This document shows positions 4,646 through 44,327 of a stretch of DNA of 64,000 bases, one piece after another (within the stretch, counting starts at the first letter, position 1; every line of letters begins with the position of its first letter). The position numbers and the translations under genes were made by a program. Source of the stretch: an uncultured Gemmatimonadaceae bacterium (lineage in GTDB: Bacteria > Latescibacterota > UBA2968 > UBA8231); assembly GCA_964512165.1 (NCBI GenBank), contig CAZEHQ010000003.1:545-64544 (forward strand). The letters run 5' to 3'. The notes below the pieces were generated by a model. It saw only the letters and a program-made list of their open reading frames with translations, made no database searches and had not been told where the DNA came from.

Positions 4646-4675
4646 GAGGTCCTCCCGGGGAGGCGCCGAGGGGCC

Positions 4676-7381: not shown

Positions 7382-7387
7382 GCGGCC

Positions 7388-23919: not shown

Positions 23920-24861
23920 GTGCCCGCCCCGGGGAGTCCCCGCCGGCCGCCCGTCCGGTGGCCCGTCCGACTGCTGCTCTCCGCCCTGATCCTGTCCCCG
24001 GTGGGCTCACCGGCCGCCCAGCCGGGGGAGCGGGTCCTGGTGGTATCCTTCGAAGACCAGAGCGACTTCCGCGGCACCTGGGACCTCCGGCAGGGGGTGC
24101 CCCGGCTGCTGGCCGAGCTGCTGCACGGCAGCGGCGTCTTCGAGGTCCTCCCCTTCGACAGCCTGGCCGTCCTTCCCGCCGGGGCCGGAGAAACCGATGC
24201 CAGGCGACTGGAGCGACAGCTGCAGGCCGGCCGCGAGGCCGGCGCCGACCTGGTCCTCGGCGGCCGGATCCGCCGCTTCGCCATCAAGCGCTTCAACGTC
24301 GGCAGCCCCCTCGTGGGCGGGTTCACCTCCTATTCCGTGCTCGTCGAGGTCGACGCCCGCCTGACGCGGGTCCTCACGGGGTCCCGCGACGGGGAGGAGG
24401 CCAGCGGCCGGGCGGAGGTGAAGGACCAGGACCTGGGCCTGACCCTGCTGGGCCGGACCACCGAGACCGAGGCCGCCCTCGCCCGCCTCAACGAGGTCCC
24501 CTTCGGGGCGCCGGAGTTCCGCGAGACGATCGTCGGCGCCGCCACCCTCGACGCCCTCGGGCAGATCGCCGGGGAGCTGTCGGCCCAGGTCGTGGTCGCC
24601 GCGGTGGAGGGCAAGGTCCTCAGCCTCCAGAGCGGCGGCGGATTCGTGGACGTCGGCCTGGCCGACCGGGTCGAGGCCGGTCACCGGCTGGCCGTGCACT
24701 CCCGGCGGGACACGCAACGGGTGGGCACGGTGCAGATCGTCGAGGTTCTGGCGGCGCACCTGTCGAGATTCCGCGCCCTGGAGGGCGGGGGAGCCATCCG
24801 CGAGGGGGATCTCCTTCGGTCCCCGTCCCAGGGTGATCCCGGAAGGGGAGACCACCGATGA
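23920..24861 (+). CDS. CsgG / LpoB / FlgT-like periplasmic protein
   Basis: GTG at 23920, in frame with ORF 23161..24861. Signal-like VRWPVRLLLSALILSPVGSPAAQP. CsgG-type pattern: VLVVSFEDQSDFRG...GVPRLLAELLHGSGVFEVLPFDSL...GADLVLGGRIRRFAI. The start codon is uncertain. Confidence 0.5.
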   Translation: MPAPGSPRRPPVRWPVRLLLSALILSPVGSPAAQPGERVLVVSFEDQSDFRGTWDLRQGVPRLLAELLHGSGVFEVLPFDSLAVLPAGAGETDARRLERQLQAGREAGADLVLGGRIRRFAIKRFNVGSPLVGGFTSYSVLVEVDARLTRVLTGSRDGEEASGRAEVKDQDLGLTLLGRTTETEAALARLNEVPFGAPEFRETIVGAATLDALGQIAGELSAQVVVAAVEGKVLSLQSGGGFVDVGLADRVEAGHRLAVHSRRDTQRVGTVQIVEVLAAHLSRFRALEGGGAIREGDLLRSPSQGDPGRGDHR

Positions 24862-26696
24862 GCACCGATGCCCGCGACCTCGAGCCTGCCTGGGCGCATC
24901 GCACGGACGACGTCGACACCAAGGTCGGGATCCTGCGGCGAGCGCTGCGCGCGGGGAACCACGAACTGGCACTGGGCGTGGCCGACTCCATCAGGGACAC
25001 CGTCGCCAACGAGCGCATGATGCGGGCCGACCCGGGGCCCGCCGACCTGCCCGGCCACGGCTGGCAACGGACCGGGCGCCTGCCGGAGCCCTGGTCCCGG
25101 TGGGCCGACGGCTGGGAGCTGTGGCAGAGCGTGCGGCTCAGCGAGCCCATCGGCCAGGCGCGGCAAGCCGAGCCGCTCGACCTCCTCGTCGGCATGCCCG
25201 CGGAGCGGGTAGCGTCGCCGCAGCGCGAGCTGCGGGTAGCGCGCCTCGAGGACGGCCGGCCCTGCGAGGTCCGCAGCCAGGTCTACGGCGAGGTCCGCCG
25301 GGGGCCGCACTGGTTCGCCCACCTGGTCTTCGAGGCCTCTGTCCCCGCCACCGGCGCGGCGGTGTTCCTGGTCTTCTGCGGCAACCCCGCCGCCGAGCTG
25401 CCCGACTACCCGAGCCGCCTGAGCATCCGGGGCGAGGGCGTGGGCCTCGAGATCGAGACCCCCCACTATGTCGCCACCCTCTCCCGGCAGATGGGCCAGC
25501 TGGAGTCTCTGACGCCCAAGTGGCACCTGGGCGGGCTGCGCTTGTCCACCCACGGAGACGGCCACGGCGAGCCACCCAACCTCGACTGGGCCCACGACTA
25601 CACCACGGCCGGCGCCTTTCAGAAGATGCGGGTCACGAACTGGGCCGAGTGCCCCCACCACGAAGTGGTGCGCGGTCCCTTGTGCGCCATCGTGCGGCGC
25701 TTCGGCTTTCCCCACAGCCCGGTGCATCCCCTGTTCACCCCCAGCCGCCTGTTCATGGACCTGACCTACACCTTCTACGCCGGGGTCCCCTGGTTCCTGA
25801 AGGATGGCCGCATGGAGGCGGCGCGCGACTTCTGCGCCCACGTGGCCCGCGACGACGAGTGGTACTTCGGCGGCCGGCCCTTCGACGCCTCCCTGTGGAT
25901 GGACCGGGGAGGCCGCGTGCACGAGGGCCCGGTGCCGCCGGAGCAGATCGACCACGTCTGGGGCGCCGGCTTCTTCCATCGTCAGAGCCGGGACAGCATG
26001 TTCGTCATCTACCTGGACCACCATCTCGAGGGATCGCCCGGCGCCGGACCGGAGGCGACGACGCCGGCGAAGCTCCATCAGCACCTCGACATCACCCTCG
26101 ACCATGCCAGGCCGGGGCAGCCGCCGCACGCGTCGGTCTGGTGCCGTCCCATGCTGCGCGACAGCGCCTGGCTGCAGACCGGATCGTCCCTCGTGCAGCG
26201 CAACGCCTACCTGCTGGCGCCCTATCCCCGGCAGGGCGGCGCCGCGGGGCTGGAAGCGCTTCGCCAGCGCCTGCTGTCGCCGCTGGTGGCCGAAGCCGGT
26301 GGGACCCCGCCGGCGGCTCCGGCCGGCGCGTCCTCCGAGGCCGGCCAACCCCTGGCCCGGGTCGGCGAGCGCCCCTCGGACCGGCCCCGGAAACGCGCCC
26401 TCTGGGAGGCCATGGGGGAGGTTCGCGAGGACCAGCTCGGCAGCGTCGACGCCAGCCTGGTCGACATGGGCTACATCTACGACGTGCGCACCCGCGGCGC
26501 CGACGTTCGCGTGGTGATGACGATGCCCCACCGGGGGCGGCCGAAGTACGACTTTCTCGCCAAACCGCTGCGGGCGCGGCTGGAACAGCTGCCGGGCGTC
26601 GGCTCGGTGGTTGTCGAGCTCACCTGGGAGCCGGCCTGGACACCCAACCGCCTCACGGATGTGGGCCGCAGGCTGATGGGTCTGGCCGACGGCTGA
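24858..26696 (+). CDS. Cytoplasmic protein: ~500 aa unknown N-terminal region fused to a C-terminal DUF59 (MIP18/SufT-like) domain
   Basis: ATGA overlap with the upstream gene. No signal peptide. C-terminus matches the DUF59 pattern: ALWEAMGEVREDQLGSVDASLVDMGYIYDVRTRGADVRVVMTMPHRGRPKYDFLAKPLRARLEQLPGVGSVVVELTWEPAWTPNRL. Confidence 0.7.
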   Translation: MSTDARDLEPAWAHRTDDVDTKVGILRRALRAGNHELALGVADSIRDTVANERMMRADPGPADLPGHGWQRTGRLPEPWSRWADGWELWQSVRLSEPIGQARQAEPLDLLVGMPAERVASPQRELRVARLEDGRPCEVRSQVYGEVRRGPHWFAHLVFEASVPATGAAVFLVFCGNPAAELPDYPSRLSIRGEGVGLEIETPHYVATLSRQMGQLESLTPKWHLGGLRLSTHGDGHGEPPNLDWAHDYTTAGAFQKMRVTNWAECPHHEVVRGPLCAIVRRFGFPHSPVHPLFTPSRLFMDLTYTFYAGVPWFLKDGRMEAARDFCAHVARDDEWYFGGRPFDASLWMDRGGRVHEGPVPPEQIDHVWGAGFFHRQSRDSMFVIYLDHHLEGSPGAGPEATTPAKLHQHLDITLDHARPGQPPHASVWCRPMLRDSAWLQTGSSLVQRNAYLLAPYPRQGGAAGLEALRQRLLSPLVAEAGGTPPAAPAGASSEAGQPLARVGERPSDRPRKRALWEAMGEVREDQLGSVDASLVDMGYIYDVRTRGADVRVVMTMPHRGRPKYDFLAKPLRARLEQLPGVGSVVVELTWEPAWTPNRLTDVGRRLMGLADG

Positions 26697-26782
26697 GGGC
26701 CGCGGCGGCGCGCTCGAAGCCCTCCGGAGCGGCCGGCGAAGCAGCCCGTGGGCGGCAGCCGTTGGGCTGCGGGCGCGGCGTC

Positions 26783-26811
26783 TGGACCGGAATCAGCCGG
26801 CAGGGTATATT
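26783..26811 (+). promoter_or_regulatory. Sigma70-like promoter candidate for the PspA-polyamine operon
   Basis: TGGACC (26783-26788), 17 nt spacer, TATATT (26806-26811). It lies 43 nt upstream of the GTG at 26854 and is the only AT-rich hexamer in this intergenic region. Confidence 0.3.
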
Positions 26812-26853
26812 GCCGATTCGCTGCTCCCGCTGCCGCCGCCAACGGTCGATTCC

Positions 26854-27201
26854 GTGTCCGGAGACCTCCTCCGCCGACTCTTCCACCTCACCCGCGCCCA
26901 CGTCGGGTCCCCGTCGCCGCCGCCGTCGACCGGCGGTGATCCTGGGCCCGGCGGGCCGGACCATGCCTCGCAGGCACCCGATGACGAACTGGCCGGGTAC
27001 TACGCCAATCTGGAGATTCCCCCCGGTTCGGACCTGGAGACGGTGCGGGCGGCCTGGAAGGGCATGATGCGCAAGTACCACCCCGACCTCCACGGCGCCG
27101 ACCCCGAGAAGCGGCGGCTGGCCGGAGAGCTCACCGCCAACTTGACGAGAGCCTACCAGGAGCTTGCGGCGGCCCTGGAGCAGAAGGGCCGGAGAGGTTA
27201 G
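26854..27201 (+). CDS. J-domain (DnaJ-like) protein
   Basis: YYANLEIPPGSDLETVRAAWKGMMRKYHPDLHG contains the HPD tripeptide in J-domain context. GTG start. Confidence 0.8.
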   Translation: MSGDLLRRLFHLTRAHVGSPSPPPSTGGDPGPGGPDHASQAPDDELAGYYANLEIPPGSDLETVRAAWKGMMRKYHPDLHGADPEKRRLAGELTANLTRAYQELAAALEQKGRRG

Positions 27202-27268
27202 CGCCGCGCCAACCACGTCAGAGCCGGCGGTCCGAGGCCGCCGCAACCGAGCAACTACAAGAGGGGCC

Positions 27269-27664
27269 ATGGCAGATCACTTCGACCGCGTCAAGGAGTA
27301 CATCCTCGAGCTGGGCTTCTCCATCGACGAGGAGATTCCCGAGGAAGAGATCGTCGTCATCAACGACGCCGAGCGCGGAATCCACGAGCTCGTCATCGAC
27401 TGCGAGGACGACCTTGTGGTGCTGGAGCAGCTCATCCTCAAGTTCGAAGGCGAGGTGCCCGCGGCCGTCTACCGCCGCATCCTGCAGATGAACCGCAGCC
27501 TCGTCTTCGGCGCCTTCATTCTCAACGAGGACGGCAACCTCCTCCTCTACCGCAACACCCTCGCCCTCGACAATCTCGACCTGAACGAGCTGGAGACGAC
27601 CATCAACGCCCTCAGCCTGGGCCTGGCGGAAAACGGCGACGAGCTCCTCGGCTTCGTCACCTGA
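27269..27664 (+). CDS. Small acidic YjfI/DUF2170-like (YbjN/chaperone-like) protein
   Basis: 131 aa. MADHFDRVKEYILELGFSIDEE...LVVLEQLILKF...LNRSLVFGAFILNEDGNLLLYRNTL. Sits directly upstream of a PspA gene, as yjfI sits upstream of yjfJ in E. coli. Confidence 0.65.
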   Translation: MADHFDRVKEYILELGFSIDEEIPEEEIVVINDAERGIHELVIDCEDDLVVLEQLILKFEGEVPAAVYRRILQMNRSLVFGAFILNEDGNLLLYRNTLALDNLDLNELETTINALSLGLAENGDELLGFVT

Positions 27665-27709
27665 GCCCGGCCCGCTGCGGCGCGTCACACGACACAAGGA
27701 AGGCGGACA

Positions 27710-28417
27710 ATGGCTGGCATCTTCAATCGCCTCTTCAAAGCCGGTGAGGCCGAGGCCCACTCCCTCGTGGACAAGCTCGAGGACCCCATCAAGATGAGCG
27801 AGCAGGCGATCCGAGATCTGCGCAAGGACCTGCAGGAGAGCCTGAGGAGCCTCGGCGAGGTCAAGTCCCTCGCCATTCGCATGGCCAAGGACGCCGAGGA
27901 CGCCAAGCGCCTGGCCGGGGACTACGAGCGCAAGGCCATGCTGCTGCTGCAGCGGGGGCAGGCCGGAGACGTGGAGACCGCCGAGGCGGAGCGCCTCGCC
28001 ATGGAGGCCCTGAGCCGCAAGGAGGAGGCCGCCGCGCGGGCGCTGCAGGCGACCCAGCAGGCCCAGACGCAGCAGCAGATGGTGGAAACCCTCCAGAACA
28101 ACGTCAACCAGCTCAAGTCGAAGGTCGCTTCCTACGAGAACGACCTGGTCATGCTCAAGGCGAGGGCGCGGACGGCCAATGCCACACGCAAGATCAACCA
28201 GCGCCTCTCCAACGTCGACACCAACGGCACTGTGGCTCTCCTCGAACGCATGAAGGAGAAGGTCTCCGAAGAGGAGGCCCTGTCCGAGGCCTACGGCGAG
28301 ATGGCCGAGGCGGGCGGCTCCGTCGACCAGGAGATCGACAAGGCCCTGGCCAGCGGCAGCACGGGCAAGTCCCAGGACTCGCTGGCCGAGCTCAAGTCCA
28401 AGATGGGCATCAGCTGA
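27710..28417 (+). CDS. pspA: PspA/IM30 family protein (YjfJ-like)
   Basis: MAGIFNRLFKAGEAEAHSLVDKLEDPIKMSEQAIRDLRKDLQESL... is followed by a long coiled coil typical of PspA/IM30. Confidence 0.9.
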   Translation: MAGIFNRLFKAGEAEAHSLVDKLEDPIKMSEQAIRDLRKDLQESLRSLGEVKSLAIRMAKDAEDAKRLAGDYERKAMLLLQRGQAGDVETAEAERLAMEALSRKEEAAARALQATQQAQTQQQMVETLQNNVNQLKSKVASYENDLVMLKARARTANATRKINQRLSNVDTNGTVALLERMKEKVSEEEALSEAYGEMAEAGGSVDQEIDKALASGSTGKSQDSLAELKSKMGIS

Positions 28418-28487
28418 CGGCGGCCGCGCTCCTCCGCCCGGCAGCAGACCGTCGCCAGCAGTTCCCGGTCCTACAGAGTACCCGTCC

Positions 28488-30167
28488 ATGACACAGGTGC
28501 CGCGCAGGAGCTTCCTCAAGACGCTCCTGGCCGGCTCCCTGGGCCTTTCCTCCGCCTGCAGCGAGCGCCGGCCGTCGCCCCCCGACGGCGATGTGGAGGC
28601 GCGCTTCGTCGATGCCGTGTCGCCGCAGCGCGGCCACCTGCTGCGAGGCCCCGTCGATCCCGCGGAATTCGCCGCCGCCGTGCCGACCCCCGTCGATGTC
28701 CTCGTCGTCGGCGGCGGCGTGTCGGGCCTGGCGGCCTGCTGGAAGCTCCGGCAGGCCGGGGTGGAGCGCCTGCTCCTGGTGGAGCTCGCCGACACTCTCG
28801 GCGGCAATGCCGTGGCCGGGCAGGCAGGAGACCTGGTCTTTCCCTGGGGGGCCCACTACATCAACGTGCCGCCGGCGGAGGCCGACTGCGTCCACGAGGT
28901 GCTGGCCGATCTCGGCGTGATCTCCGGGTACGACGCGGCCGGGCGCCCCCGGGTCGACCCCGGCCACCTGTTGCGCTGGCCCGCCGAGAGGTTGTGGACA
29001 GACGGGGACTGGGTCGAGGGGCTCGATCCCTTCGCCGGCGCCGGGGACGGCGAGATGGAAGAGCTGCTGGCCTTCGAGGACGACATCCTGCGCTGGACCC
29101 TGCACCGCGGGCGGGATGGCCGCCGGGCCTTCGCCATGCCCCTGGCCTACAGCACCGCCGACGCCGGGGTGCGCGAGCTCGACGGCCTGACCATGGCGGA
29201 GTACGTGGAGCGCCGCGGCTGGCGCGGCGACCGCCTGGCCTGGCTCATCGACCAGGCCTGCAAGGACGACTACGGCAGCCTCGCCGCCGACGTCTCGGCC
29301 TGGGCGGGCATCCACTACTTCGCCTGCCGCTTCTACGACCACCGCCTGCGGGACGACTACCCCTCCGACACGCTCACCTGGCCCGAGGGCAACCAGTTCC
29401 TCGCCGACGGCCTGGCCCGCGGGCTGACGGCCGGGGAGCAGTGGCTGGCGACGGCCGTCGTCGGTCTGCGCGGGGAGGGAACGGCGGCCGAGGCCCTGTG
29501 CATCCACGCCCCCACGGGCCAGCGGCGGCGGGTCCGGGCCCGGTCCGTGGTCTACGCCGGCAAGCTGCACACGGCCCCGCGCGTGGTCGCGGATCTGCCC
29601 GCCGCCCAGCGGCGGTCCATGGAGGGACTGACCTACGTCCCCTGGATCGTGGCCGCCGTGAGGCTGTCCGCGGAGCTGGGCGACGCGGGTCTGGCCTGGG
29701 ACAACGTGGTCATGGACAGCCCTTCCGTCGGCTATGTCTCCGCCCGCCACCAGGCCTCCCCGGCCCCGGAGCGGGCGGGGGAGGTCCTCGTCTACTACCT
29801 GCCCCTGGTGGACGATCCGGCCGCCTCCAGGCACGAGCTGCTGGTCGACGATCCGCAGCCGTGGGCCCGGAGGGTGATGGCCGACCTGTCGCGCGTCCAT
29901 CCGCAGCTGCCCGCCCTGGTGGAAGGGATCGACATCTGCCGCTGGGGCCACGGCATGGTCCGTCCGGCCCCGGGCGTCATCTGGGGGGCCGGCAGCGGTC
30001 TGCGGCGCCGGCCCTGCGGGGTCGTGTCCTTCGCCTCGTGCGACGCCACCGGCCTGCCCCTCTTCGAAGAGTCCCTGTTCGCCGGCATCGCCGCGGCCGA
30101 GCGCTGTCTCGACGTGCTCGACGCTCCCTACACGACCTCTCTCCACGGCATGCCGGCCCATGGGTGA
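28488..30167 (+). CDS. Tat-exported, probably lipidated FAD-dependent amine oxidase-like oxidoreductase
   Basis: Twin-arginine motif plus Cys: MTQVPRRSFLKTLLAGSLGLSSAC. Dinucleotide fold: VDVLVVGGGVSGLAACWKL. Overall amine-oxidase-like length and pattern. Confidence 0.8.
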   Translation: MTQVPRRSFLKTLLAGSLGLSSACSERRPSPPDGDVEARFVDAVSPQRGHLLRGPVDPAEFAAAVPTPVDVLVVGGGVSGLAACWKLRQAGVERLLLVELADTLGGNAVAGQAGDLVFPWGAHYINVPPAEADCVHEVLADLGVISGYDAAGRPRVDPGHLLRWPAERLWTDGDWVEGLDPFAGAGDGEMEELLAFEDDILRWTLHRGRDGRRAFAMPLAYSTADAGVRELDGLTMAEYVERRGWRGDRLAWLIDQACKDDYGSLAADVSAWAGIHYFACRFYDHRLRDDYPSDTLTWPEGNQFLADGLARGLTAGEQWLATAVVGLRGEGTAAEALCIHAPTGQRRRVRARSVVYAGKLHTAPRVVADLPAAQRRSMEGLTYVPWIVAAVRLSAELGDAGLAWDNVVMDSPSVGYVSARHQASPAPERAGEVLVYYLPLVDDPAASRHELLVDDPQPWARRVMADLSRVHPQLPALVEGIDICRWGHGMVRPAPGVIWGAGSGLRRRPCGVVSFASCDATGLPLFEESLFAGIAAAERCLDVLDAPYTTSLHGMPAHG

Positions 30168-31698
30168 GCCGGCCGTCGAGCGCGGCCCCTGGGGGGCGGC
30201 CCTGCTCCTGGCCGCCATCTTCACGGCGGCGGCCTGCGCCATCGTCTACGAGCTCCTCATCGGCAGCACCTCGGCCTACTTCCTCGGCGACAGCGTTCAG
30301 CAGTTCTCGGTCACCATCGGCCTCTTCCTCGCCTCCATGGGCCTGGGCTCCTGGATCTCGCGGGCCGTCACGGAGCGCCTGCTGGAGCGCTTCATCGCCC
30401 TCGAGCTGTGGCTGGCGGCCGTCGGCGGATGCTCGGTACCGGTCCTCTACCTCGCGTACCTGCACAGCGGTCAGTTCCGCTACGCCATGGTCCTCCTCAT
30501 CGTCGCAGTGGGCGCCCTCGTCGGCCTGGAGCTGCCGCTGCTGACCCGCATGCTTCAGCGCTACGGCGAGCTGCGCACGGTGCTGTCCAACGTCCTGCTC
30601 CTCGACTACCTGGGCTCCCTGGTGGCGGCGCTGCTCTTTCCCTTCCTGCTGCTGCCCCTGCTGGGCGCCTTCGACACCGCCCTGGCGGCGGGCCTGCTCA
30701 ACGCCGGCGTCGGCCTCGCGCTGCTGGGCGGGTTCTGGTCCAGGCTCGGGCGAGGCGCGCGGGGCCGGCTCCTGGCCCTGGGACTCGTCATCACCTGCGG
30801 ACTGGGCCTGGCCCTGGCGGCGGCCAACCCCCTCCGCCAGCGGCTGGAGAGCGATCTCTACACCGACCGGATCGTCCACAGCGAGCGCTCGCCGTACCAG
30901 CAGATCGTCCTCACCGAGTGGCGGGACGACGTCCGCCTCTACCTGGACCGCCACCTGCAGTTCTCCTCCGTCGACGAGTACCGCTACCACGAGTCCCTCG
31001 TCCATCCGGCCATGGCCCTGGCCCCCCACCGGCAGCGGGTCCTCGTCATCGGCGGCGGCGACGGGCTCTCGGTGAGGGAGGTGCTGCGCCACCGCGCCGT
31101 GGAGCGGGTCGACGTGGTCGATCTGGACCCGGCGGTGACGGACCTGGCCCGGCGCGACCTGCGCCTCACGCGCCTCAACGACAACGCCCTCAGCCGGCCG
31201 GGTGTCCGTATCTTCTCCGAGGACGGTTTCTCCTTCCTCCAGCGGGCCCACGAGCCCTATGGCGTCATCATCATCGATCTGCCGGACCCCCGGGACGAGG
31301 CCCTCTCCAAGCTCTACTCGATCGAGGTCTACCGCCTGTGCGCCCGCCACCTCTCCCCGGGAGGGGTGGTGGTCACGCAGGCCTCGAGTCCCTACTATGC
31401 GAGGACGACGTTCTGGAGCATCGCCGCCACCATGGCCGAAGCCGGGTTGCGCGTCGTGCCCTACCACACGCTCGTGCCGTCCTTCGGCGAGTGGGGGTTC
31501 GTCGCCGGCCTCAGCGGTCCCGGTGAGCCGCGGGAGGTGACCTTCGACGTGGACGGCCTTCGATTCATGACACCCGGGATCTTCCGGCAGATGCTGACCT
31601 TCCCCGGCGACATGAGCCGGCCGGAGGAGGTCGTCGTCAACCGCCTCGACCGGCCGCTGCTGTCGCGGCAGTACCGGGAAGACTGGAGCCGCTGGTGA
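30160..31698 (+). CDS. Polytopic-membrane-anchored spermidine/spermine synthase-like aminopropyltransferase
   Basis: 8-nt overlap with the oxidase gene. About 7 N-terminal TM helices. Spermidine-synthase core: YQQIVLTE...LYLDRHLQFSSVDEYRYHESLVHP...VLVIGGGDGLSVREVLRH..VERVDVVDLDPAVTDLAR. Confidence 0.85.
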   Translation: MGEPAVERGPWGAALLLAAIFTAAACAIVYELLIGSTSAYFLGDSVQQFSVTIGLFLASMGLGSWISRAVTERLLERFIALELWLAAVGGCSVPVLYLAYLHSGQFRYAMVLLIVAVGALVGLELPLLTRMLQRYGELRTVLSNVLLLDYLGSLVAALLFPFLLLPLLGAFDTALAAGLLNAGVGLALLGGFWSRLGRGARGRLLALGLVITCGLGLALAAANPLRQRLESDLYTDRIVHSERSPYQQIVLTEWRDDVRLYLDRHLQFSSVDEYRYHESLVHPAMALAPHRQRVLVIGGGDGLSVREVLRHRAVERVDVVDLDPAVTDLARRDLRLTRLNDNALSRPGVRIFSEDGFSFLQRAHEPYGVIIIDLPDPRDEALSKLYSIEVYRLCARHLSPGGVVVTQASSPYYARTTFWSIAATMAEAGLRVVPYHTLVPSFGEWGFVAGLSGPGEPREVTFDVDGLRFMTPGIFRQMLTFPGDMSRPEEVVVNRLDRPLLSRQYREDWSRW

Positions 31699-32267
31699 TC
31701 AGCCGGGTCAGGAAGTGGTTCGGGGGCAGCGACCCCGAGGACGACCACGCCGGTCTCGCCGACCTGCGCCTCGATTCCATGGGCCCGGGCGATCTCGTCG
31801 ACTACGACCTGAAGACCTGGGAGGTCACCGGCCGGAGCGTCTACGACTACGACGGTTTCCCGGCCCGGGAGTGGCAGCTGACCTGCGGGGAGGAGGTGCG
31901 TTTCCTCGAGCGCTCCGAGGAGGACGGGCGGGTCGGGTGGACGTTGACGCGCAGCATCGCCATCGGTGACATTGATGAGGACGTGACCGCCGCCATCGCC
32001 GCCGACGAAGACCCGCCCGGGACCCTCCACTTCGAGGGCCGGCGGTACGCGGCCTCGGAATCGACCGCCGGGGTGCAGTGGGACCTGGCCGGCGACGGCT
32101 CGAAGGACGAGGGATCGGCGCGCGAGTTCGTCAACTGGAGCTACGAGGCCGAGGACGGCCGCGTCCTCTTTGTCGTGCAGTGGGGTGAGCAGCGGTTCTC
32201 CGCCTACGAGGGCGAGAACGTCGAGGAGTACTCCTTCACCGACATCCTGCCTGGAGGTGAACGGTGA
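31695..32267 (+). CDS. DUF4178 domain protein
   Basis: GTGA overlap with the upstream gene. DLVDYDLKTWEVTGRSVYDYDGFPAREWQLTCGEEVRFLERSEEDG fits the DUF4178 pattern. The start could instead be the internal Met (MGPGDLV). Confidence 0.7.
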   Translation: MISRVRKWFGGSDPEDDHAGLADLRLDSMGPGDLVDYDLKTWEVTGRSVYDYDGFPAREWQLTCGEEVRFLERSEEDGRVGWTLTRSIAIGDIDEDVTAAIAADEDPPGTLHFEGRRYAASESTAGVQWDLAGDGSKDEGSAREFVNWSYEAEDGRVLFVVQWGEQRFSAYEGENVEEYSFTDILPGGER

Positions 32268-32995
32268 GGCAAGCGAGGGGGCCCCGCCCCCGGACCCGTA
32301 GAGCTTCGGCCCGCGGCGCGGCGATCGCCGGGGCCGCCCTGATCGCCGCCGCCGGCTGCGGCCGGACCCCCGACCCCGTGGAGCAGACGGTCCGCGACCT
32401 CGAACGCTACCCGGAGTACGCCGTCATCATCGAGGATCTGAAGGTGGAGGACGGGTTCTTCCCCGACTACTTCCTGCGCCTGCGGCTCATGACGGCCAGC
32501 GGCCAGCGGGTCGCCGGGAAGGACACCCTGGTCTACGAGGACCGGGTCACGGACTGGCTGGAGGTGGAGGAGGAGGTCATGGCCCGCTACCAGCACTACC
32601 TGGGCATGGTGGTGGCCGGCAAAACCCTCGACGGCAGGCGCACCACCTCCCGGCAGGCCCACCCGCCGGGGTACCAGTACGTCGGCAACAGTCAGTACGG
32701 CACCTGGGGCGCCGGCGGGTTCTGGCAGTTCTACGGCCAGTACGCCTTCATGAGCGCCATGCTCGGCGGATTCGGGGTGGGCCGCGGCGACTACGCCGAC
32801 TACCGCCGCAACCGCGAGGTCGGCCGGCCTCACTTCGGCCCCACCCGCCAGGGGCGGCGGACCTTCGGCACCGCCGGGACGCAGACCCAGAAGACCCGTC
32901 CCGACTTCTACCAGCGCTACCGGCAGCGCTCCGCCGGCGGACGCGGTTTCGCGACGCGGACCTCCAGTGTCGGCGGCCGGCGCTTCGGCAAGTGA
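32264..32995 (+). CDS. Lipoprotein with a Gly/Arg-rich tail, function unknown (sits where yjfM-like genes sit)
   Basis: GTGA overlap with the upstream gene. Lipobox: AIAGAALIAAAGC. Tail: GGFWQFYGQYAFMSAMLGGFGVGRGDYADYRRN. Confidence 0.55.
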   Translation: MRQARGPRPRTRRASARGAAIAGAALIAAAGCGRTPDPVEQTVRDLERYPEYAVIIEDLKVEDGFFPDYFLRLRLMTASGQRVAGKDTLVYEDRVTDWLEVEEEVMARYQHYLGMVVAGKTLDGRRTTSRQAHPPGYQYVGNSQYGTWGAGGFWQFYGQYAFMSAMLGGFGVGRGDYADYRRNREVGRPHFGPTRQGRRTFGTAGTQTQKTRPDFYQRYRQRSAGGRGFATRTSSVGGRRFGK

Positions 32996-33027
32996 CCCGA
33001 TCTCGACAAGTGAGAGGGAGGTAGCCA

Positions 33028-33873
33028 ATGGAATCCATCCTGATGCCCATGGGCCGGTCGGCGGTGTACCTGCTCGAGGCCTTCGTCCTGCTGGTCATCG
33101 CCAAGTGGGCGTACACCAGCTTCTACCGGCGGGTCCATCTGAAGGAGGAGCTCTTCGACAAGGGCAACGCCGCCCTCGCCGTGTCGACGGCGGGCTACCT
33201 CTTCGGCATCGTCATCGCCCTGGGAGGCGTTCTTCTGGGTCCCTCCGCGGGATGGCAGGCGGATCTGACGGCGATCGGCCTGTACGGCCTCATGACCATC
33301 GCCATGATGCTGGCGGCCAGCTGGCTGTGCGAGAAGGTCCTGCTCTCCCGCTTCGACAACACCAAGGAAGTGGTGGAGGACCAGAACCTGGGCACCGCCT
33401 TCGTCGAGGCCGGGGTCCACATCGCCAACGGCCTCATCCTGCTGGCCATTCAGCAGGGCGCCGGCCCCTGGTGGGCGGGCCTCGTGTTCTGGGCCCTGGC
33501 CCAGGCCGTGCTGCTCGTCCTCGGGCGGATCTACGAGATGGCCACGCCCCACAGCGTCCACGACGAGCTCGAGCGCGACAACGCCGCCGTGGGGCTCGCC
33601 CTCGCGGGAGCCCTGGTGGGGATGGGCAACATCATCAGCCTCGCCGTGGCCGGCGACTTCACGGGCTGGAAGGACGGTCTGACCACCTTTGGCGCCGATG
33701 CCGCCTTCGGTCTGGTCATCCTCCTCGTCATCCGGCGGCTGAGCTGCGTCCTCCTGGCTCCCGGCGTCAGCCTGGCCGCTCAGCAGACGCAGGAGACGCC
33801 CCGCACCGGCGCCGGTCTGCTGGAGGCCTTCGGCTACGTGGGCGGCAGCATGTTGGTCGTCTGGGTGCTCTGA
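33028..33873 (+). CDS. Integral membrane protein with three DUF350 (YjfL-like) repeats
   Basis: Three units of the D/E-x-N-x-A pattern, each followed by a TM helix: KEELFDKGNAALAVSTAGYLFG, KEVVEDQNLGTAFVEAGVHIANG, HDELERDNAAVGLALAGALVG. Confidence 0.75.
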   Translation: MESILMPMGRSAVYLLEAFVLLVIAKWAYTSFYRRVHLKEELFDKGNAALAVSTAGYLFGIVIALGGVLLGPSAGWQADLTAIGLYGLMTIAMMLAASWLCEKVLLSRFDNTKEVVEDQNLGTAFVEAGVHIANGLILLAIQQGAGPWWAGLVFWALAQAVLLVLGRIYEMATPHSVHDELERDNAAVGLALAGALVGMGNIISLAVAGDFTGWKDGLTTFGADAAFGLVILLVIRRLSCVLLAPGVSLAAQQTQETPRTGAGLLEAFGYVGGSMLVVWVL

Positions 33874-33912
33874 CACCCGCCCCGGAAGAGACCCGCCCGA
33901 CCCGAGATCGCC

Positions 33913-34956
33913 GTGCCCATCTGGCTGCCCCTAATGCGCGTCTGGCGGCGGGTCGTCCACCGCCATTCCCTGGCGTGGATCTCCCTGCTGTCGGCGTCGC
34001 TCATCGTCGTCGGCGGGGTGCTGTTCTCGTTGATAGAGGGCCAGCCCCTCGGCGACGGCCTGTGGTGGGCGGTGGTGACGACGACGACCGTCGGCTACGG
34101 GGACTACTCGCCGGTGACCGCCCAGGGCCGGGTGGTGGGCGCCTTTCTGATGGTGCTTGGCATCGGCGTCCTCGGCGGTTTCACGGCGGAGCTGGCCACC
34201 TTCATCATCGAGCACCGGAGCCGGAAAGACAGGGGGATCAAGCCCGTGAAGACGAGTGGACACATCCTGGTCTGCGGCTGGAACGAGACGGGCGAGGACC
34301 TGGTCCGCAACCTCCTCGCCGACAGCCAGCGAGTGGAAGTCGTGGTTCTCGCCGAGCTTCCCGGCCACCCCATGCCCGCCGAGGGCGGGGCCAACCGCGT
34401 GAACTTCGTCCGCGGGCGGGTGGACGCCGAGGCCCTCGACCGCGCTTGCGCGCGGGACTGCTCGGGGGCGGTGATCCTGGGAGACCAGGAGATCGAGGAC
34501 ACCGCCGGCCGCGACGCCAAGACGCTGATCCGGGCGCTGACGATCAAGGAGTACGAGCCGGGCCTGCACGTGTGCATTCAGCTCTTCGATCCCGGCTCCA
34601 CCCGGCACGCCGACATCTCCCGGGCCGACGAGGTCGTGGTCGTGGGCGCCCTCTCCAGCGGCCTGCTGAGCCGCGCGGTCCTCGACCCGGGCAGCTCGCG
34701 GGCGGTCTCGAGCCTGGTGCGCGCCGAGGAGCAGTGCGAGATCTACCTCGTCGAGGTGCCCCCCGACTGGCCGGGAAGACGCTTCGATGAGATGCTCCCG
34801 GTCGCCAAGGAGACCCACGATGTGCTGCTCGTCGGCGTCGAACCGGCGGGAGGGAGCCTGGTGGTGAATCCCCCCGGCGACTACGCCTTCTCCACCGGCG
34901 ACCGGCTGGCCGTCATCTCCGAGGACCGCCCCGACATCCGGACCCTCCACGGATGA
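33913..34956 (+). CDS. Two-TM K+ channel with a cytoplasmic RCK/TrkA-N domain
   Basis: Selectivity filter VVTTTTVGYGDYSP. RCK-type GHILVCGWNETGEDLVRNL. GTG start. Confidence 0.85.
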   Translation: MPIWLPLMRVWRRVVHRHSLAWISLLSASLIVVGGVLFSLIEGQPLGDGLWWAVVTTTTVGYGDYSPVTAQGRVVGAFLMVLGIGVLGGFTAELATFIIEHRSRKDRGIKPVKTSGHILVCGWNETGEDLVRNLLADSQRVEVVVLAELPGHPMPAEGGANRVNFVRGRVDAEALDRACARDCSGAVILGDQEIEDTAGRDAKTLIRALTIKEYEPGLHVCIQLFDPGSTRHADISRADEVVVVGALSSGLLSRAVLDPGSSRAVSSLVRAEEQCEIYLVEVPPDWPGRRFDEMLPVAKETHDVLLVGVEPAGGSLVVNPPGDYAFSTGDRLAVISEDRPDIRTLHG

Positions 34957-35348
34957 GCCCGTCTCTCCCGGCACCCGTCGACACCCGGGTGAGGTCCGCC
35001 CTGGGCCGCCATCTCCTGGTCGATCTCTACGGTTGCGCCCGGGGGCTGCTCGACGACGTGGACCATGTCCGCCGGGGCCTGCTGGCCGCCGCCGAGGAGG
35101 CCGGCGCCACCGTCGTGGACGCCCACTTCCACAGCTTCTCGCCGTGCGGCGTCACCGGCACCGTGTCGATCCAGGAGAGCCATCTCTCCATCCACACCTG
35201 GCCCGAGCACCTCTACGCCGCCGTCGACATCTTCACCTGCGGCGACTCCATCGATCCCTGGCGCGCCTACGAGTCTCTCAAGACCGCTCTCGAGGCCGAC
35301 AGGGGTTCGGCCATGGAGATCCGCCGGGGCCGGCCCGACCTCCTGTAG
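34953..35348 (+). CDS. speH: S-adenosylmethionine decarboxylase proenzyme, class 1B (SpeH/SpeD type)
   Basis: ATGA overlap with the channel gene. GRHLLVDLYGC...VTGTVSIQESHLSIHTWPEHLYAAVDIFTCG contains the Glu-Ser self-processing site in its canonical context. Confidence 0.85.
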   Translation: MSPSLPAPVDTRVRSALGRHLLVDLYGCARGLLDDVDHVRRGLLAAAEEAGATVVDAHFHSFSPCGVTGTVSIQESHLSIHTWPEHLYAAVDIFTCGDSIDPWRAYESLKTALEADRGSAMEIRRGRPDLL

Positions 35349-35570
35349 GGGGCCCGGCCACGGGCGGAGAGGCTTCGGCTGTGCTGACGGCGACGTCCAG
35401 GCCAGGAGCAAGGCCCTCCGTCGGCCCCGGCAAAGCCGAGACCCGCCGCCGCTGACGTGCCCGGCGCCTTGTTCGAGGCGCTGAACTACCGGAACCCTTG
35501 GGATTGACGCTCGACCCGAACATATTCTAGGCTGATAGCTGGTCAGTCAGGATGCCAGAGGAGGTCGGAC

Positions 35571-35831
35571 ATGAGCAGGAAATGGCCAGTCCAGGACGCC
35601 AAGATGCGGTTCAGCGAACTCCTGGATACAGCTCTTGCCGAAGGGCCCCAGATCGTCACCAAACGAGGCGTCGAGACCGCTGTGCTCCTTCCGATTGAGC
35701 AGTGGCGCAGGATGGAGCGCATGACCAGACCCAACCTGAAGGAACTCCTTCTTGTATCCGGAGCGCGCACCGACAACCTCACTCCACCGCGCCAGCAGCG
35801 CCGCCGTCGGGGACCGATGGCGATGGAGTAA
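35571..35831 (+). CDS. Phd/YefM-type (VapB-like) antitoxin with no cognate toxin
   Basis: WPVQDAKMRFSELLDTALAEGPQIVTKRGVETAVLLPIEQWRRM is the classic Phd/YefM N-terminal fold pattern. GAGGAGG RBS. Lower local G+C. Confidence 0.7.
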   Translation: MSRKWPVQDAKMRFSELLDTALAEGPQIVTKRGVETAVLLPIEQWRRMERMTRPNLKELLLVSGARTDNLTPPRQQRRRRGPMAME

Positions 35832-35861
35832 GCTGCATGTTTGAGGCGGAGCGGCCCCTTC

Positions 35862-35883
35862 GGTGAATCGGTGACCGATCACC
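35862..35883. promoter_or_regulatory. Near-perfect 22-nt palindrome between two antitoxin genes (possible TA operator)
   Basis: GGTGAATCGGTGACCGATCACC. The arms are complementary apart from one extra A. It lies about 95 nt upstream of the ATG at 35976. Confidence 0.25.
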
Positions 35884-35975
35884 CACGGAACCGCAGACCG
35901 CGTCGTCCCAATGGTCCCGCACACTCTCGAAAGGGCGCTGCCTTCGTTGGCCCCTCGCGATGGAGAGCAACCAAG

Positions 35976-36203
35976 ATGTCCAAGCTCCTGGAAGAGGCGT
36001 TCAGGAGAGCTTCCGAACTGCCCGAAGATCGACAGGACTTCCTGGGCCGCATGTTGCTCCAGGTCGTTGGCGAAAAGGGAACCCTCTCCAAGTTGACGGA
36101 TGAGCAGGTCGCTCAGGCGCGAGGGTCCCTCGCTCGGGCCGAAGCGGGGGAATTCGCCTCCGACGAAGCGGTGAAGGAACTGTGCGAGAAGCATGGGGCA
36201 TGA
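35976..36203 (+). CDS. Small antitoxin-like protein (addiction-module antidote type); a downstream toxin is not recognisable
   Basis: MSKLLEEAFRRASELPEDRQDFLGRMLLQ... resembles antitoxins usually paired with RelE/ParE toxins. The stop overlaps ATGAGGATCCGGTAA (M-R-I-R-stop), where a toxin ORF would start. Confidence 0.4.
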   Translation: MSKLLEEAFRRASELPEDRQDFLGRMLLQVVGEKGTLSKLTDEQVAQARGSLARAEAGEFASDEAVKELCEKHGA

Positions 36204-36403
36204 GGATCCGGTAATACCTCGACCGTGCCCTCGTCGTGCCGGCCATGGGAGTACCAGGCGCGGCCTTCTTCGAGTCGCCCGGGTGACCGAGTCCCTGTGC
36301 CGGCTGCCGGCCCGGGTGCGCCGCGGCTTGGCAAGCGCGACCCGACACTTCCGTGGCCTGATCGAGCGGGGCCTGCTGCGAGCCCTGCCGCAGGAGTGAT
36401 CGC

Positions 36404-38128
36404 GTGCACCACCCTCCCTCCTGCCTCTCCGCCGCCCTCCTCCTCACCCTCACCGCCCCCTCCGCCGACGGCCAGGTCACCTTCGTCGACGTGACGGACC
36501 CGGCCGGCATCACCTTCCACTACACCCACGGCGGCACCGGCCGCAAGCACTTCATCGAGACCATGGGGCCGGGGTGCGCCTTCCTCGACTACGACGGCGA
36601 CGGCGGCCTCGATATCTACGCCGTCAACGGCCACGCCCTGGGAGGCTCCGAGTCCGCCGAGACCAACGAGCTCTACCGCAACTTGGGGGACGGCAGCTTC
36701 CGCGAGGTCGGCGGCGAGGCCGGCGCCGACGACCGCGGCTACGGGGTGGGCGTCACCGCCGCCGACTACGACAACGACGGCGACGCCGATCTCTACCTCA
36801 CCAACTACGGGCGCAACGTGCTGCTGCGGGGGCGGGGGGACGGGACCTTCGCCGACCACACCACTCAAGCCGCGGTGGGGGACTCCTCGTGGGGCACGGG
36901 GTGCGCCTTCCTCGACTACGACAACGACGGCCTCCTCGACCTCTACGTGGCCAACTACGTGGAGTACTCCCTCGACGCCGGGGGCCGGGATCTGACGCCC
37001 TACTTCCTCGCCGCCCCGGGCCAGGAGCCGGCGGCGGACCTGCGCGCCTATCCCAGCCCGGAGAATTTCCCCGGCTCCCCCGATGTCCTCTACCGCAACG
37101 GCGGCGACGGCACTTTCACCGACGTCACCGCCGCGGCCGGGGTCCACGATCCCGCGGGCAAGGGGATGGGCATCGCCGCCTCCGACTACGATGACGACGG
37201 CGACATGGACGTCTTCGTGGCCAACGACCAGACCGCCAACTTCCTCTACCGGAACAACGGCGACGGCACCTTCACCGACGTGGCCCTGCTGGCGGGGGTG
37301 GGGTACAGCGGCGACGGCCGGCCGGAGGCGAGCATGGGCGCCGACTTCGGGGACTACGACAACGACGGCCTCCTCGATCTCGTGGTCCCCAACTTCCACC
37401 GCGAGCCCACCAGTCTCTACCGCAACGAGGGGGACGGGCTGTTCGCCTGGGAGTCGATGCGGTCGGGCCTCGGCCGGCCGTCTCTCGCCTACGTCGGCTG
37501 GGGGACCGCCTTCCTCGACTACGACAACGACGGCTTCCTCGACGTCTTCGTCGCCAACGGCCACACTCTGGACAACATCGAGCTCTTCGACGCCTCCTCC
37601 TCGTACCCGCAGCCCGACCAGCTCTTCCGCAACACCGGGGCCGGCCGCTTCGAGGACGTCTCCGGCGCCGCGGGGGAGGCCCTGACCGCGCCCCGGGTGA
37701 GCCGGGGAGCGGCCTTCGGCGATTATGACGACGACGGCGATACGGATATCTTCGTGGTCCATTCCACGGGCCGCGCCGTCCTGCTGCGCAACGAGGGAGG
37801 CGACAAGGGGCACTGGCTGCAGGTGAAGACCGTGGGCGTGAAGGCGAACCGCGACGGCGTGGGGGCGCGGATCGAGGTCGTGTCCGGGGACCTGCGGCAG
37901 GTCCGGGAGATCCGCACCGGCTCCGGCCTCTACAGCCAGAACGACCCGCGCGCCTGCTTCGGCCTGGGGCAGAGGGAACGGGTGGACCTGCTGCGGGTGC
38001 GGTGGCCGGGTGGCGGCGTCGACCGCATCGAGGGCCTGCCCGTCAACCGGCTGGTGGTGGTGGCGGAAGGCATCGGGTTGATCGAGGGAGAGGAAGATCT
38101 GCCGCCGGCGGGCGGGAGTGCCGAGTGA
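36404..38128 (+). CDS. Secreted CRTAC1/ASPIC-UnbV family protein with FG-GAP/VCBS repeats
   Basis: Signal peptide, then FVDVTDPAGITFHYTHGG...GPGCAFLDYDGDGGLDIYAVNG. Repeated DYDNDGxxDLxV units. UnbV_ASPIC-like tail: NRDGVGARIEVVSGDLRQVREIRTGSGLYSQNDPRACFGLG. Confidence 0.85.
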   Translation: MHHPPSCLSAALLLTLTAPSADGQVTFVDVTDPAGITFHYTHGGTGRKHFIETMGPGCAFLDYDGDGGLDIYAVNGHALGGSESAETNELYRNLGDGSFREVGGEAGADDRGYGVGVTAADYDNDGDADLYLTNYGRNVLLRGRGDGTFADHTTQAAVGDSSWGTGCAFLDYDNDGLLDLYVANYVEYSLDAGGRDLTPYFLAAPGQEPAADLRAYPSPENFPGSPDVLYRNGGDGTFTDVTAAAGVHDPAGKGMGIAASDYDDDGDMDVFVANDQTANFLYRNNGDGTFTDVALLAGVGYSGDGRPEASMGADFGDYDNDGLLDLVVPNFHREPTSLYRNEGDGLFAWESMRSGLGRPSLAYVGWGTAFLDYDNDGFLDVFVANGHTLDNIELFDASSSYPQPDQLFRNTGAGRFEDVSGAAGEALTAPRVSRGAAFGDYDDDGDTDIFVVHSTGRAVLLRNEGGDKGHWLQVKTVGVKANRDGVGARIEVVSGDLRQVREIRTGSGLYSQNDPRACFGLGQRERVDLLRVRWPGGGVDRIEGLPVNRLVVVAEGIGLIEGEEDLPPAGGSAE

Positions 38129-43736: not shown

Positions 43737-44327
43737 TCAGCGCGCCCTGCCGCTCGCCTTGACCACGCCCCAGCTCGAACTCGCCACCGCCGTGACTTGG
43801 CCGTCCCGCACCCGCACCTCCACCTCGTGAAAGACGATCGTCCCCAGGGCCACCAGCTCGATGTTGTCGGCCCGGGTGCCGGTGGGGAAGGGCACCTCCG
43901 TCCACGCATCGGTCACCCTCGAGTGGTTTGCCGCGGAGGCGGTCCTCGTGCCCTCGGGCTCACGCAGGGTCCCGGTCTCGTCGAGACGACCCCCCACGTA
44001 GGCGCGGATCTCGTAGTCGTTGCCGATGGAGCCGATGTAGACGCGCACCGCCTCCAGGTCGAGGGGCTCCTCCCACTCGAAGACCAGGATGCCCCCGCCA
44101 TGCCAGAGGAAGCCCCCGGCCTGCGGATCGTCGGCGGGTGTCTCGCCATCGACCAGAGACGCGAGATCGCCCTCCGAGGTGTTCCAGGTGGTGGCCCGGG
44201 TCACGGCATCGACGGCGGCGTTGCGGCCGGCCCCGGTCGCCGCCGCGGAGACCAGCACCAGCCAGACCGCCGCCGCGGCCAGAGCCAGGGCGCCGGTCCT
44301 CGTTTCAAGGAGTGAAGAGGATGTCAC
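43737..44327 (-). CDS. Secreted or membrane-anchored protein with a discoidin-like carbohydrate-binding-type domain
   Basis: Hydrophobic N-terminus GALALAAAAVWLVLVSAAATGAG. LASLVDGETPADDP...ILVFEWEEPLDLEAVRVYIGS...IVFHEVEVRV resembles F5/8-type-C modules. GTG start with no obvious RBS. Confidence 0.6.
   Translation of the reverse strand: MTSSSLLETRTGALALAAAAVWLVLVSAAATGAGRNAAVDAVTRATTWNTSEGDLASLVDGETPADDPQAGGFLWHGGGILVFEWEEPLDLEAVRVYIGSIGNDYEIRAYVGGRLDETGTLREPEGTRTASAANHSRVTDAWTEVPFPTGTRADNIELVALGTIVFHEVEVRVRDGQVTAVASSSWGVVKASGRAR

Follow-up and report, generated by a model that had tools for sequence, protein, structure and literature searches.

A predicted, extended CesT/Tir-PspA operon that joins a membrane-fused aminopropyltransferase to a putatively exported amine oxidase, a J-domain protein and a K+ channel

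Membrane-fused aminopropyltransferases reportedly occur in thousands of genomes, and their linkage to S-adenosylmethionine (AdoMet) decarboxylase (AdoMetDC) and DUF350 proteins is said to have been noted by Li, Kurihara, Kim, Liang and Michael in 2019 (Biochem J 476:2579), whose fusions reportedly gave no spermidine and no speE complementation. Among the CesT/Tir-PspA operons catalogued by Ravi et al. 2024 (PMC11237479), the second major group comprises six to seven genes, has Shewanella oneidensis SO_3765 as its prototype, and contains CesT/Tir-PspA, a Spermine_synth domain fused to seven transmembrane (TM) segments, an 8TM DUF350 protein, the lipoprotein Ctha_1186 with a low-complexity tail, and DUF4178. 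The third group, of the E. coli yjf or Alteromonas type, carries a K+ channel and an ATP-grasp ligase, and variants with a K+ channel, AdoMetDC or polyamine oxidase are described in sister groups (PMC11237479). The same survey describes a related speE-DUF350 locus in M. tuberculosis (proteins CCP45394/5) and proposes that PspA-CesT operons monitor polyamines or aminopropylation, and takes both the AdoMetDC linkage and 'aminopropylation of other substrates' from Li et al. 2019 (PMC11237479). A later paper by the group behind Li et al. (PMC12803844) reports that bacterial fusions of this kind do not make spermidine or spermine. The 64,000-nt stretch of contig CAZEHQ010000003.1 analysed here (the window, in which all coordinates are positions) contains a predicted operon of ten co-directional genes at 26854-35348 on the + strand. 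This operon is a richer, extended variant of the catalogued, functionally unsolved system, and what is new in it is a set of extra conserved parts and a lead on the topology of the transferase.

All ten + strand open reading frames (ORFs) were confirmed, with a GC content at third codon positions of 0.85-0.94, the codon signature of genuine genes in a window of ~70% GC. Families were assigned by profile searches with Pfam and NCBIfam, and the result matches the gene list of a first-pass annotation, which had reported ten co-directional genes over this interval, almost item by item. The genes are as follows.

26854..27201, + strand: small J-domain protein, 115 aa (Pfam DnaJ PF00226, 29.7 bits, cut-off 27.8; HPD motif)
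27269..27664 (longest ORF from 27164), + strand: CesT/Tir-like chaperone, PspA partner (PF22550 CesT_Tir_1, 139 bits; YbjN, 35 bits)
27710..28417, + strand: PspA/IM30, a bacterial ESCRT-III-like membrane-remodelling protein (PF04012, 148 bits)
28488..30167, + strand: flavin adenine dinucleotide (FAD) amine oxidase, predicted to be exported by twin-arginine translocation (Tat) and probably lipid-anchored (Pfam Amino_oxidase, NAD_binding_8)
30160..31698, + strand: 7-TM domain fused to an aminopropyltransferase domain dependent on decarboxylated AdoMet (dcAdoMet), 512 aa (NF002956, 603 bits; Spermine_synth, 131 bits)
31695..32267, + strand: DUF4178 protein, no signal peptide, presumably cytoplasmic (PF13785, 79 bits)
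32264..32995, + strand: lipoprotein with lipobox Cys32
33028..33873, + strand: double DUF350 (YjfL-type) integral membrane protein, ~8 TM by hydropathy (PF03994, 148 bits, 2 stretches)
33913..34956, + strand: 2-TM K+ channel with a cytoplasmic RCK domain (Ion_trans_2, 58 bits; Slo-like_RCK, 39 bits)
34953..35348, + strand: class 1b (SpeH-type) pyruvoyl AdoMet decarboxylase (TIGR03330, 139.8 bits, cut-off 75.65)

Two of these descriptions depart from the earlier list. The second gene had been called YjfI-like and has no DUF2170 match; its CesT_Tir_1 family and DUF2170 (YjfI) belong to the same superfamily (PMC11237479). The DUF350 protein had been read as a triple repeat and instead consists of two tandem 4-TM units.

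The conservation of the gene set was surveyed in a neighbourhood census anchored on the DUF4178 protein, using a scan of one genome per species in which 80 of 112 relatives were kept, with the ten window proteins compared to the loci by tblastn and counts taken over the 45 loci with full 10-kb flanks. The census is biased to relatives of the window DUF4178 protein, and its taxonomic labels are NCBI labels of metagenome-assembled genomes (MAGs), which are sometimes unreliable. CesT and PspA are each present in 45/45 loci, and the TM-aminopropyltransferase, the lipoprotein and DUF350 in 44/45 each; the K+ channel follows with 39/45, the J-protein with 34/45, the oxidase with 29/45 and AdoMetDC, within 10 kb, with 7/45. 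The loci come from ~nine groups: Latescibacterota, Gemmatimonadota, Acidobacteriota, Desulfobacterota, Binatia, Calditrichia, KSB1, Bacteroidota and a Handelsmanbacteria MAG. The closest relatives (L001-L004 and L006, 65-88% identity, MAGs labelled Latescibacterota or Gemmatimonadaceae) have the same ten genes in identical order, and the order is also identical in L005, which is cut at gene 1. Acidobacteriota loci run DUF4178-lipoprotein-DUF350-channel-J-CesT-PspA and have their oxidase and transferase genes on the opposite strand; those of Desulfobacterota and Binatia run channel-CesT-PspA-DUF4178, and a transferase-DUF350-lipoprotein block diverges from them. Because the same gene set is retained across ~nine phylum-level groups despite shuffled order and strand, the census is strong evidence that the PspA genes and the 'polyamine' genes form a functional module, and it argues against their independence. 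The proposal of the first-pass annotation that the two parts make one unit is thus upheld, the core being kept in 44-45/45 loci. Searching with a lipoprotein profile yields 668 representative clusters at E<=1e-3 in 1.84 billion proteins, and the system therefore appears to be widespread but not huge.

Some relatives carry features that lie outside the ten genes. Insertion sequence (IS) elements (rve, IS110-type transposases) are present between cluster genes of some metagenomic relatives, at 6933-8167 and 13641-15468 of L081/L082 and at 8563-9797 of L083/L084; the DUF4178 gene of L081/L082 is truncated, and the module therefore appears to be decaying or being reshuffled in the IS-bearing genomes. 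In Latescibacterota-type relatives, an LPG_synthase_TM gene (MprF-like flippase domain, 86 bits) lies beyond the K+ channel (L007 13599-14414, - strand); it neighbours the cluster in ~10 relatives, is absent from the window, and could bear on a lipid-modification reading. In Acidobacteriota, a DUF2617 protein adjoins the transferase (L031 18031-18777, + strand, and 13 other loci), and an unannotated polytopic membrane protein of ~360 aa lies between PspA and the oxidase (L015 5507-6664, - strand, and 14 other loci). The DUF2617 family also occurs in the M. tuberculosis variant (PMC11237479).

The spacing of the genes is tight. True overlaps of -8, -4, -4 and -4 nt occur at 30160, 31695, 32264 and 34953, and the remaining intergenic gaps are 32-70 nt, with 45 nt between CesT and PspA and 70 nt between PspA and the oxidase. 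Five overlaps had been claimed earlier; these four are real, and the fifth, 27164 against 27201, is an artefact of the TTG start of the longest ORF. CesT homology starts at ATG 27269, with a Shine-Dalgarno (SD)-like 'agagggg' upstream, which leaves a 67-nt gap after the J-protein gene. The sole promoter-like match in 26000-37000 lies at 26783-26811 (0.5 expected by chance) and three terminator-like matches were observed against 2.7 expected, so that both scans are at chance level and hence uninformative. An Rfam scan of the whole window for structured RNAs and riboswitches gave zero matches. Given the four overlaps, gaps of <=70 nt, SD-like sites and terminators not above chance, the ten genes are predicted to form one operon.

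The transferase combines seven hydrophobic segments in residues 13-224 with a Spermine_synth domain (PF01564) spanning residues 274-448, and scores 62.5 bits (cut-off 40) against NF037959 ('fused MFS/spermidine synthase', MFS_SpdSyn). Its motifs are YHES at 276, GGGDG at 298 and DLPDP at 373; among 67 orthologues, GGGDG is retained in 66/67, and YHE and the catalytic Asp pair D[LF][PT]DP in 67/67 each. The acidic residue of GxG(D/E)G selects decarboxylated AdoMet, and Ile occupies this position in the fungal 7TM N-terminal histidine methyltransferase NHMT (PMC10349129). Because the acidic residue of GGGDG, DxxDP and YHE are retained across the orthologues, the family is assigned to the real dcAdoMet aminopropyltransferases. 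A methyltransferase like the fungal NHMT was considered and rejected, as GGGDG is conserved. The closest PDB matches are 7xif, Thermus SpeE (3anx/1uir) and thermospermine synthase (6bq2), which are broad-specificity or long-chain enzymes, and the canonical SpeE equivalog cut-offs are missed (TIGR00417, 140 vs 249.55; NF002010, 168 vs 260).

In an alignment of 65 orthologous N-terminal regions, seven clear hydrophobic segments are seen, with ~2.4-3.3 Lys+Arg per loop in the N-terminus and loops 2-3, 4-5 and 6-7 and 0-0.5 in loops 1-2, 3-4 and 5-6. Taken at face value, the positive-inside rule would give an N-in/C-out topology with a periplasmic catalytic domain; this is a lead, not a result, as it comes from a hand-made hydropathy and positive-inside count in which one miscounted helix reverses the answer. 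Three glutamates, E31, E82 and E124, lie inside TM1, TM3 and TM4 and are invariant in the 65 orthologues (window 30160-30840, residues 1-227), and an acidic position at ~146-150 is also highly conserved. A periplasmic catalytic domain would sit beside the oxidase and the lipoprotein, with a possible cation path through the membrane domain.

The donor for this transferase would be supplied by the last gene. The AdoMetDC stretch IQESHLSIHTWPE...FTCGD aligns to T. maritima 1tlu (134 bits), with the ES cleavage site, the His, the Cys and the HTWPE proline aligned, in agreement with class 1b. The HTxPE proline tells true AdoMetDC apart from the arginine decarboxylases that derive from it (PMC10407285), and a neofunctionalised homologue (arginine or ornithine decarboxylase) was rejected on the conservation of this diagnostic proline and of the catalytic residues. 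The search for a diamine-forming enzyme (arginine or ornithine decarboxylase, agmatinase) found none in the operon or in the 64-kb window, and only the aminopropyl donor and transfer steps are encoded. The 'complete polyamine synthesis' of the first-pass annotation is thus too much to claim, the more so as fusions of this kind are reported not to form spermidine or spermine.

The oxidase scores 46 bits for NAD_binding_8 and 25.5 for Amino_oxidase against a gathering score of 19.8, and its N-terminus, PRRSFLK...LSSAC, has an RRSFLK Tat motif and a lipobox-like Cys. R6, R7, F9 and C24 are >=90% conserved in 46 homologues, in lipobox-like contexts. Its AlphaFold2 (AF2) model has a predicted local distance difference test (pLDDT) score of 87.8, and the top Foldseek matches in the PDB, at E ~1e-24, are the putrescine-bound bacterial monoamine oxidase (MAO) 8p84/9h5p, the spermidine dehydrogenase SpdH 7d9x and putrescine oxidase 2yg3; TM-scores of 0.63/0.77 to 8p84, 2yg3 and 7d9x place the model in the MAO/polyamine oxidase fold. 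Homologues at 48% identity still lie within the same cluster, and the oxidase and the TM-fused transferase remain adjacent in both gene arrangements, which suggests that the oxidase is a dedicated partner, predicted to be exported.

At the other end of the operon, the J-protein consists of a conserved N-terminal amphipathic helix (DLLRRLFHLTRAHV), a low-complexity linker and a J domain in which HPD, in the context KYHPDLH, is present and conserved in orthologues, as expected of a J domain at the sequence level. Wherever it is found it lies directly upstream of CesT, at a distance of 7-190 nt (mostly <60 nt) in 41/80 loci. J and CesT/Tir share a single uninterrupted frame at L083 6964-7776 and L042 ~4305-4980, which reflects either a genuine gene fusion or an artefact of assembly or of a frameshift. 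PspA does not reach the equivalog cut-offs of classical PspA or LiaH, and the operon encodes zero AAA+ ATPases. In Chlamydomonas, the J-protein/Hsp70 system CDJ2-HSP70B-CGE1 assembles and disassembles the PspA homologue VIPP1 (PMC12798727). Given the adjacency of the J-protein to CesT, the lack of an AAA+ ATPase in the operon and the precedent of CDJ2-HSP70B acting on VIPP1, the simplest reading is that the J-protein would recruit DnaK to a PspA/CesT complex. DnaJ and J-domain proteins receive no mention in PMC11237479 or its supplement.

The remaining genes are less readily interpreted. DUF4178 has zero PDB sequence matches and, in the literature searched, is mentioned only in PMC11237479. 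The lipoprotein has no Pfam, NCBIfam or PDB sequence match; its Cys32 is invariant in 40 homologues, and it comprises a folded alpha/beta domain of ~100 aa (AF2 pLDDT ~80-92 for residues 30-130) followed by a disordered Gly/aromatic/Arg-rich tail (pLDDT <50). This layout and the operon position fit the 'LipoSIG+Ctha_1186+Low-comp' entry in the supplement of PMC11237479, Ctha_1186 being compared by description only. The channel has the filter TTTVGYGD at residues 58-65, which marks it at the sequence level as an RCK-gated K+ channel, and its presence in 39/45 loci makes a coupling of the module to K+ flux plausible.

These parts can be assembled into a model of an envelope module, an extended CesT/Tir-PspA plus membrane-aminopropyltransferase system, which as a whole we regard as evenly balanced between right and wrong. 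Its starting points are the identity of each gene, the catalytic motifs and export signals, the layout of the operon and the co-conservation across phyla described above. The SpeH-type decarboxylase would produce decarboxylated AdoMet in the cytoplasm, and the 7-TM-anchored transferase would pass the aminopropyl group of dcAdoMet to an amine at the membrane. This acceptor is most likely a small molecule other than putrescine that resembles a diamine or polyamine, and its modification would leave a polycationic product on the inner membrane or beyond it. E31, E82 and E124 may form a path for the cationic substrate or product, and the Tat-exported FAD amine-oxidase lipoprotein would oxidise or trim the amine in the periplasm, as turnover or as an 'eraser'. 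DUF4178 in the cytoplasm, the double DUF350 protein in the membrane and the lipoprotein in the periplasm would be invariant partners that probably act as a scaffold or sensor across the envelope. The RCK K+ channel could compensate charge or turgor while PspA protects and remodels the inner membrane, with the CesT-like chaperone and the J-protein handling PspA and the J-protein bringing DnaK as an assembly or disassembly motor.

Several observations weigh against this model. The acceptor in it is inferred, as are which way transport runs, what DUF4178, DUF350, the lipoprotein and the channel do, and the recruitment of DnaK. The fusions tested by Li et al. 2019 may, from what is reported of them, not be of the PRK03612-type family of the window protein. 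The single transcription unit is deduced from spacing only, and AdoMetDC and the oxidase, given their census counts of 7/45 and 29/45, are lineage-specific add-ons and not core. The catalytic domain lies near canonical polyamine transferases (E 2e-38 to 7xif), closer than expected of a 'non-polyamine' enzyme. A Foldseek search with the lipoprotein gave nothing significant (best E 0.13) and no structural clue, and the literature searched holds no experimental function for any component of this operon class.

The topology lead invites a bolder alternative, in which the transferase faces the periplasm, receives dcAdoMet through its 7-TM domain and aminopropylates an envelope macromolecule, be it a lipid head-group, a peptidoglycan-linked amine or the N-terminus or a lysine of a secreted protein or lipoprotein, possibly the co-encoded one, with the exported oxidase reversing or processing the mark. 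The positive-inside pattern of the 65 orthologues (N-in, catalytic domain out), the suitability of the invariant E31/E82/E124 for a cationic cofactor path, the export signals on both the oxidase and the lipoprotein, and the LPG_synthase_TM (MprF-like) gene that flanks the cluster in ~10 relatives all favour it. We know of no periplasmic use of AdoMet-derived cofactors in bacteria, and the strong resemblance of the catalytic domain to soluble polyamine transferases speaks against it, as does a topology count that a single miscounted helix inverts. The fungal ER (endoplasmic reticulum)-resident 7TM NHMT, which must face the lumen, modifies secreted proteins (PMC10349129), and the report of membrane fusions without a spermidine or spermine product (PMC12803844) agrees with such a role. 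On balance, extracytoplasmic aminopropylation is a tentative proposal that is probably wrong as it stands, and its combination with an oxidase eraser and a mini J-protein that makes DnaK the remodelling ATPase for PspA is similarly doubtful.

A more conventional explanation is ordinary cytoplasmic polyamine metabolism, with AdoMetDC and a tethered spermidine- or thermospermine-type synthase, an oxidase that catabolises external polyamines, and PspA and its partners as neighbours merely because polyamines generally stabilise membranes. A P. aeruginosa speD/speE pair making envelope-protective surface spermidine (Johnson et al. 2012) is said to offer a precedent. NCBIfam names NF002956, matched at 603 bits, 'polyamine aminopropyltransferase', the full set of canonical catalytic motifs is present, the nearest relatives in the PDB, among them Thermus SpeE and thermospermine synthase, are genuine polyamine transferases, and the oxidase fold matches putrescine and spermidine enzymes. 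However, this explanation lacks any diamine-forming enzyme in the operon or the 64-kb window, has to accommodate a score below the canonical SpeE cut-offs (TIGR00417, 140 vs 249.55), and leaves the invariant 7-TM domain with its buried glutamates and the linkage to DUF4178, the lipoprotein and DUF350 (44/45) unexplained. It also conflicts with the published statement that the fusions are not spermidine or spermine makers (PMC12803844), and we consider it improbable. It is very improbable indeed that, in this genome, the transferase block is transcribed apart from the J/CesT/PspA triad and has no functional relation to it: the 70-nt gap between PspA and the oxidase and the opposite strands of the two blocks in Acidobacteriota and Desulfobacterota would fit such independence, but the blocks lie within a few kb of each other in 44-45/45 loci across phyla, in any orientation, and cluster-breaking insertion sequences (L081-L084) have not dispersed the cluster.

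The surroundings of the operon contain the following features.

26783..26811, + strand: sigma-70-like promoter candidate (TGGACC-17-TATATT) in the 157-nt gap before gene 1, weak evidence
24858-26696, + strand: upstream neighbour, 612 aa, with a C-terminal DUF59/FeS_assembly_P as its sole recognisable part
35571-35831, + strand: Phd/YefM-type antitoxin ORF, 86 aa (52 bits)
35976-36203, + strand: 75-aa ORF without a family match

Upstream, the DUF59-containing neighbour is conserved in L002 only. The downstream flank consists of the orphan Phd/YefM antitoxin and then an FG-GAP/ASPIC protein; a ~1-kb gap of locally lower GC lies 3' of the operon at 35349-36403, and no toxin partner for the Phd/YefM ORF is recognisable in it. 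The flanking genes were rejected as module members and the unit was taken as the ten genes, because the flanks are unrelated and common only to the two closest relatives, L001 and L002. A defence system was also rejected, PADLOC giving just a generic methyltransferase-fold match (mad2, 66 bits) and a marginal PspA match. Elsewhere in the window, 52973-57457 (- strand) encodes a 1494-aa protein of several WD40 beta-propellers (WD40, 404 bits, with matches to many propeller families). Large secreted-type proteins with FlgD_ig/Por_Secre_tail (type IX secretion sorting) C-termini are encoded at 16-2268, 43928-46513 and 4676-13380 (+ strand), and three consecutive ORFs of 900-1050 aa have zero Pfam matches.

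The function of membrane-fused aminopropyltransferases and of their companion DUF350/DUF4178/lipoprotein set is an acknowledged open problem. In the window, the enzyme that forms the donor is encoded in one predicted unit with the transferase, an exported oxidase of polyamine-oxidase fold, an ion channel and the PspA machinery, and the search for the substrate is therefore narrowed to the periplasmic face of the membrane. The extra conserved parts (oxidase, J-protein, channel and in-operon AdoMetDC), together with the topology lead, make the chemistry more tractable. The J-protein upstream of CesT-PspA is a candidate energy source for PspA remodelling in bacteria without PspF or AAA+ partners, and the DnaK reading, if true, would explain how PspA homologues are disassembled without an AAA+ partner.

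Like the E. coli yjfIJKLMC locus, whose composition as given in the first-pass annotation agrees with PMC11237479, and like the rest of the third group, the operon combines a CesT-superfamily protein and PspA with a DUF350 protein, a lipoprotein and an RCK K+ channel, and it too is linked to polyamine-type chemistry. That group is defined by CesT_Tir-DUF2170, PspA, a K+ channel, DUF2491, a DUF350 4TM protein, DUF1190 and an ATP-grasp GSS-like ligase. A Pfam search of the ten proteins at E<=0.01 gave no match to DUF2170 (YjfI), DUF2491 (YjfK), DUF1190 (YjfM) or the ATP-grasp ligase (YjfC), and in the window DUF350 is doubled and aminopropyl transfer takes the place of ATP-dependent amide ligation. 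The first-pass view of a yjf-type locus with its ligase replaced therefore gives way to membership of a separate catalogued class.

The clusters of Li et al. 2019 likewise bring together class 1b AdoMetDC, a membrane-fused SpdSyn-like protein (the window protein being above the NF037959 cut-off) and DUF350, whereas the PspA, oxidase, J-protein and channel context was not the subject of that work. The P. aeruginosa PA4773-PA4775 surface-spermidine locus (Johnson et al. 2012, PMC3272965) is similar in having a dedicated AdoMetDC/aminopropyltransferase pair for envelope protection; its synthase is reportedly soluble and makes ordinary spermidine under PmrAB control, and the locus is said to lack PspA, DUF350, DUF4178 and an oxidase. 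The fungal NHMT resembles the transferase in domain layout, with an N-terminal 7-TM region followed by a spermidine-synthase-fold domain, and the topology lead parallels its action on secretory-pathway substrates; unlike NHMT, which has Ile in GxG(D/E)G and AdoMet as methyl donor (PMC10349129), the window protein and 66/67 orthologues keep Asp. CDJ2-HSP70B-CGE1 and VIPP1 likewise pair a dedicated J-domain co-chaperone with a PspA/IM30-family protein, whereas in the window operon genomic adjacency alone makes the link, and the J-protein encoded there, a very small protein of 115 aa, carries an amphipathic helix at its N-terminus in place of a client-binding domain. The closest described system is the second group of Ravi et al., with which the operon shares the CesT/Tir-PspA dyad, the TM-fused Spermine_synth protein, DUF350, DUF4178 and, judged by layout, a lipoprotein with a low-complexity tail. 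The optional terminal ribbon-helix-helix (RHH) regulator of that group does not follow gene 10, where the next ORF is the Phd/YefM antitoxin, and the gene order differs. The architecture had been put forward as apparently different; its core is catalogued (PMC11237479), and no J-domain protein in a PspA operon of this class and no combination of all the accessory genes in one operon was found in the literature searched. What the window operon has beyond the second-group core is its J-domain protein, the FAD amine oxidase with its Tat signal, the RCK K+ channel and AdoMetDC.

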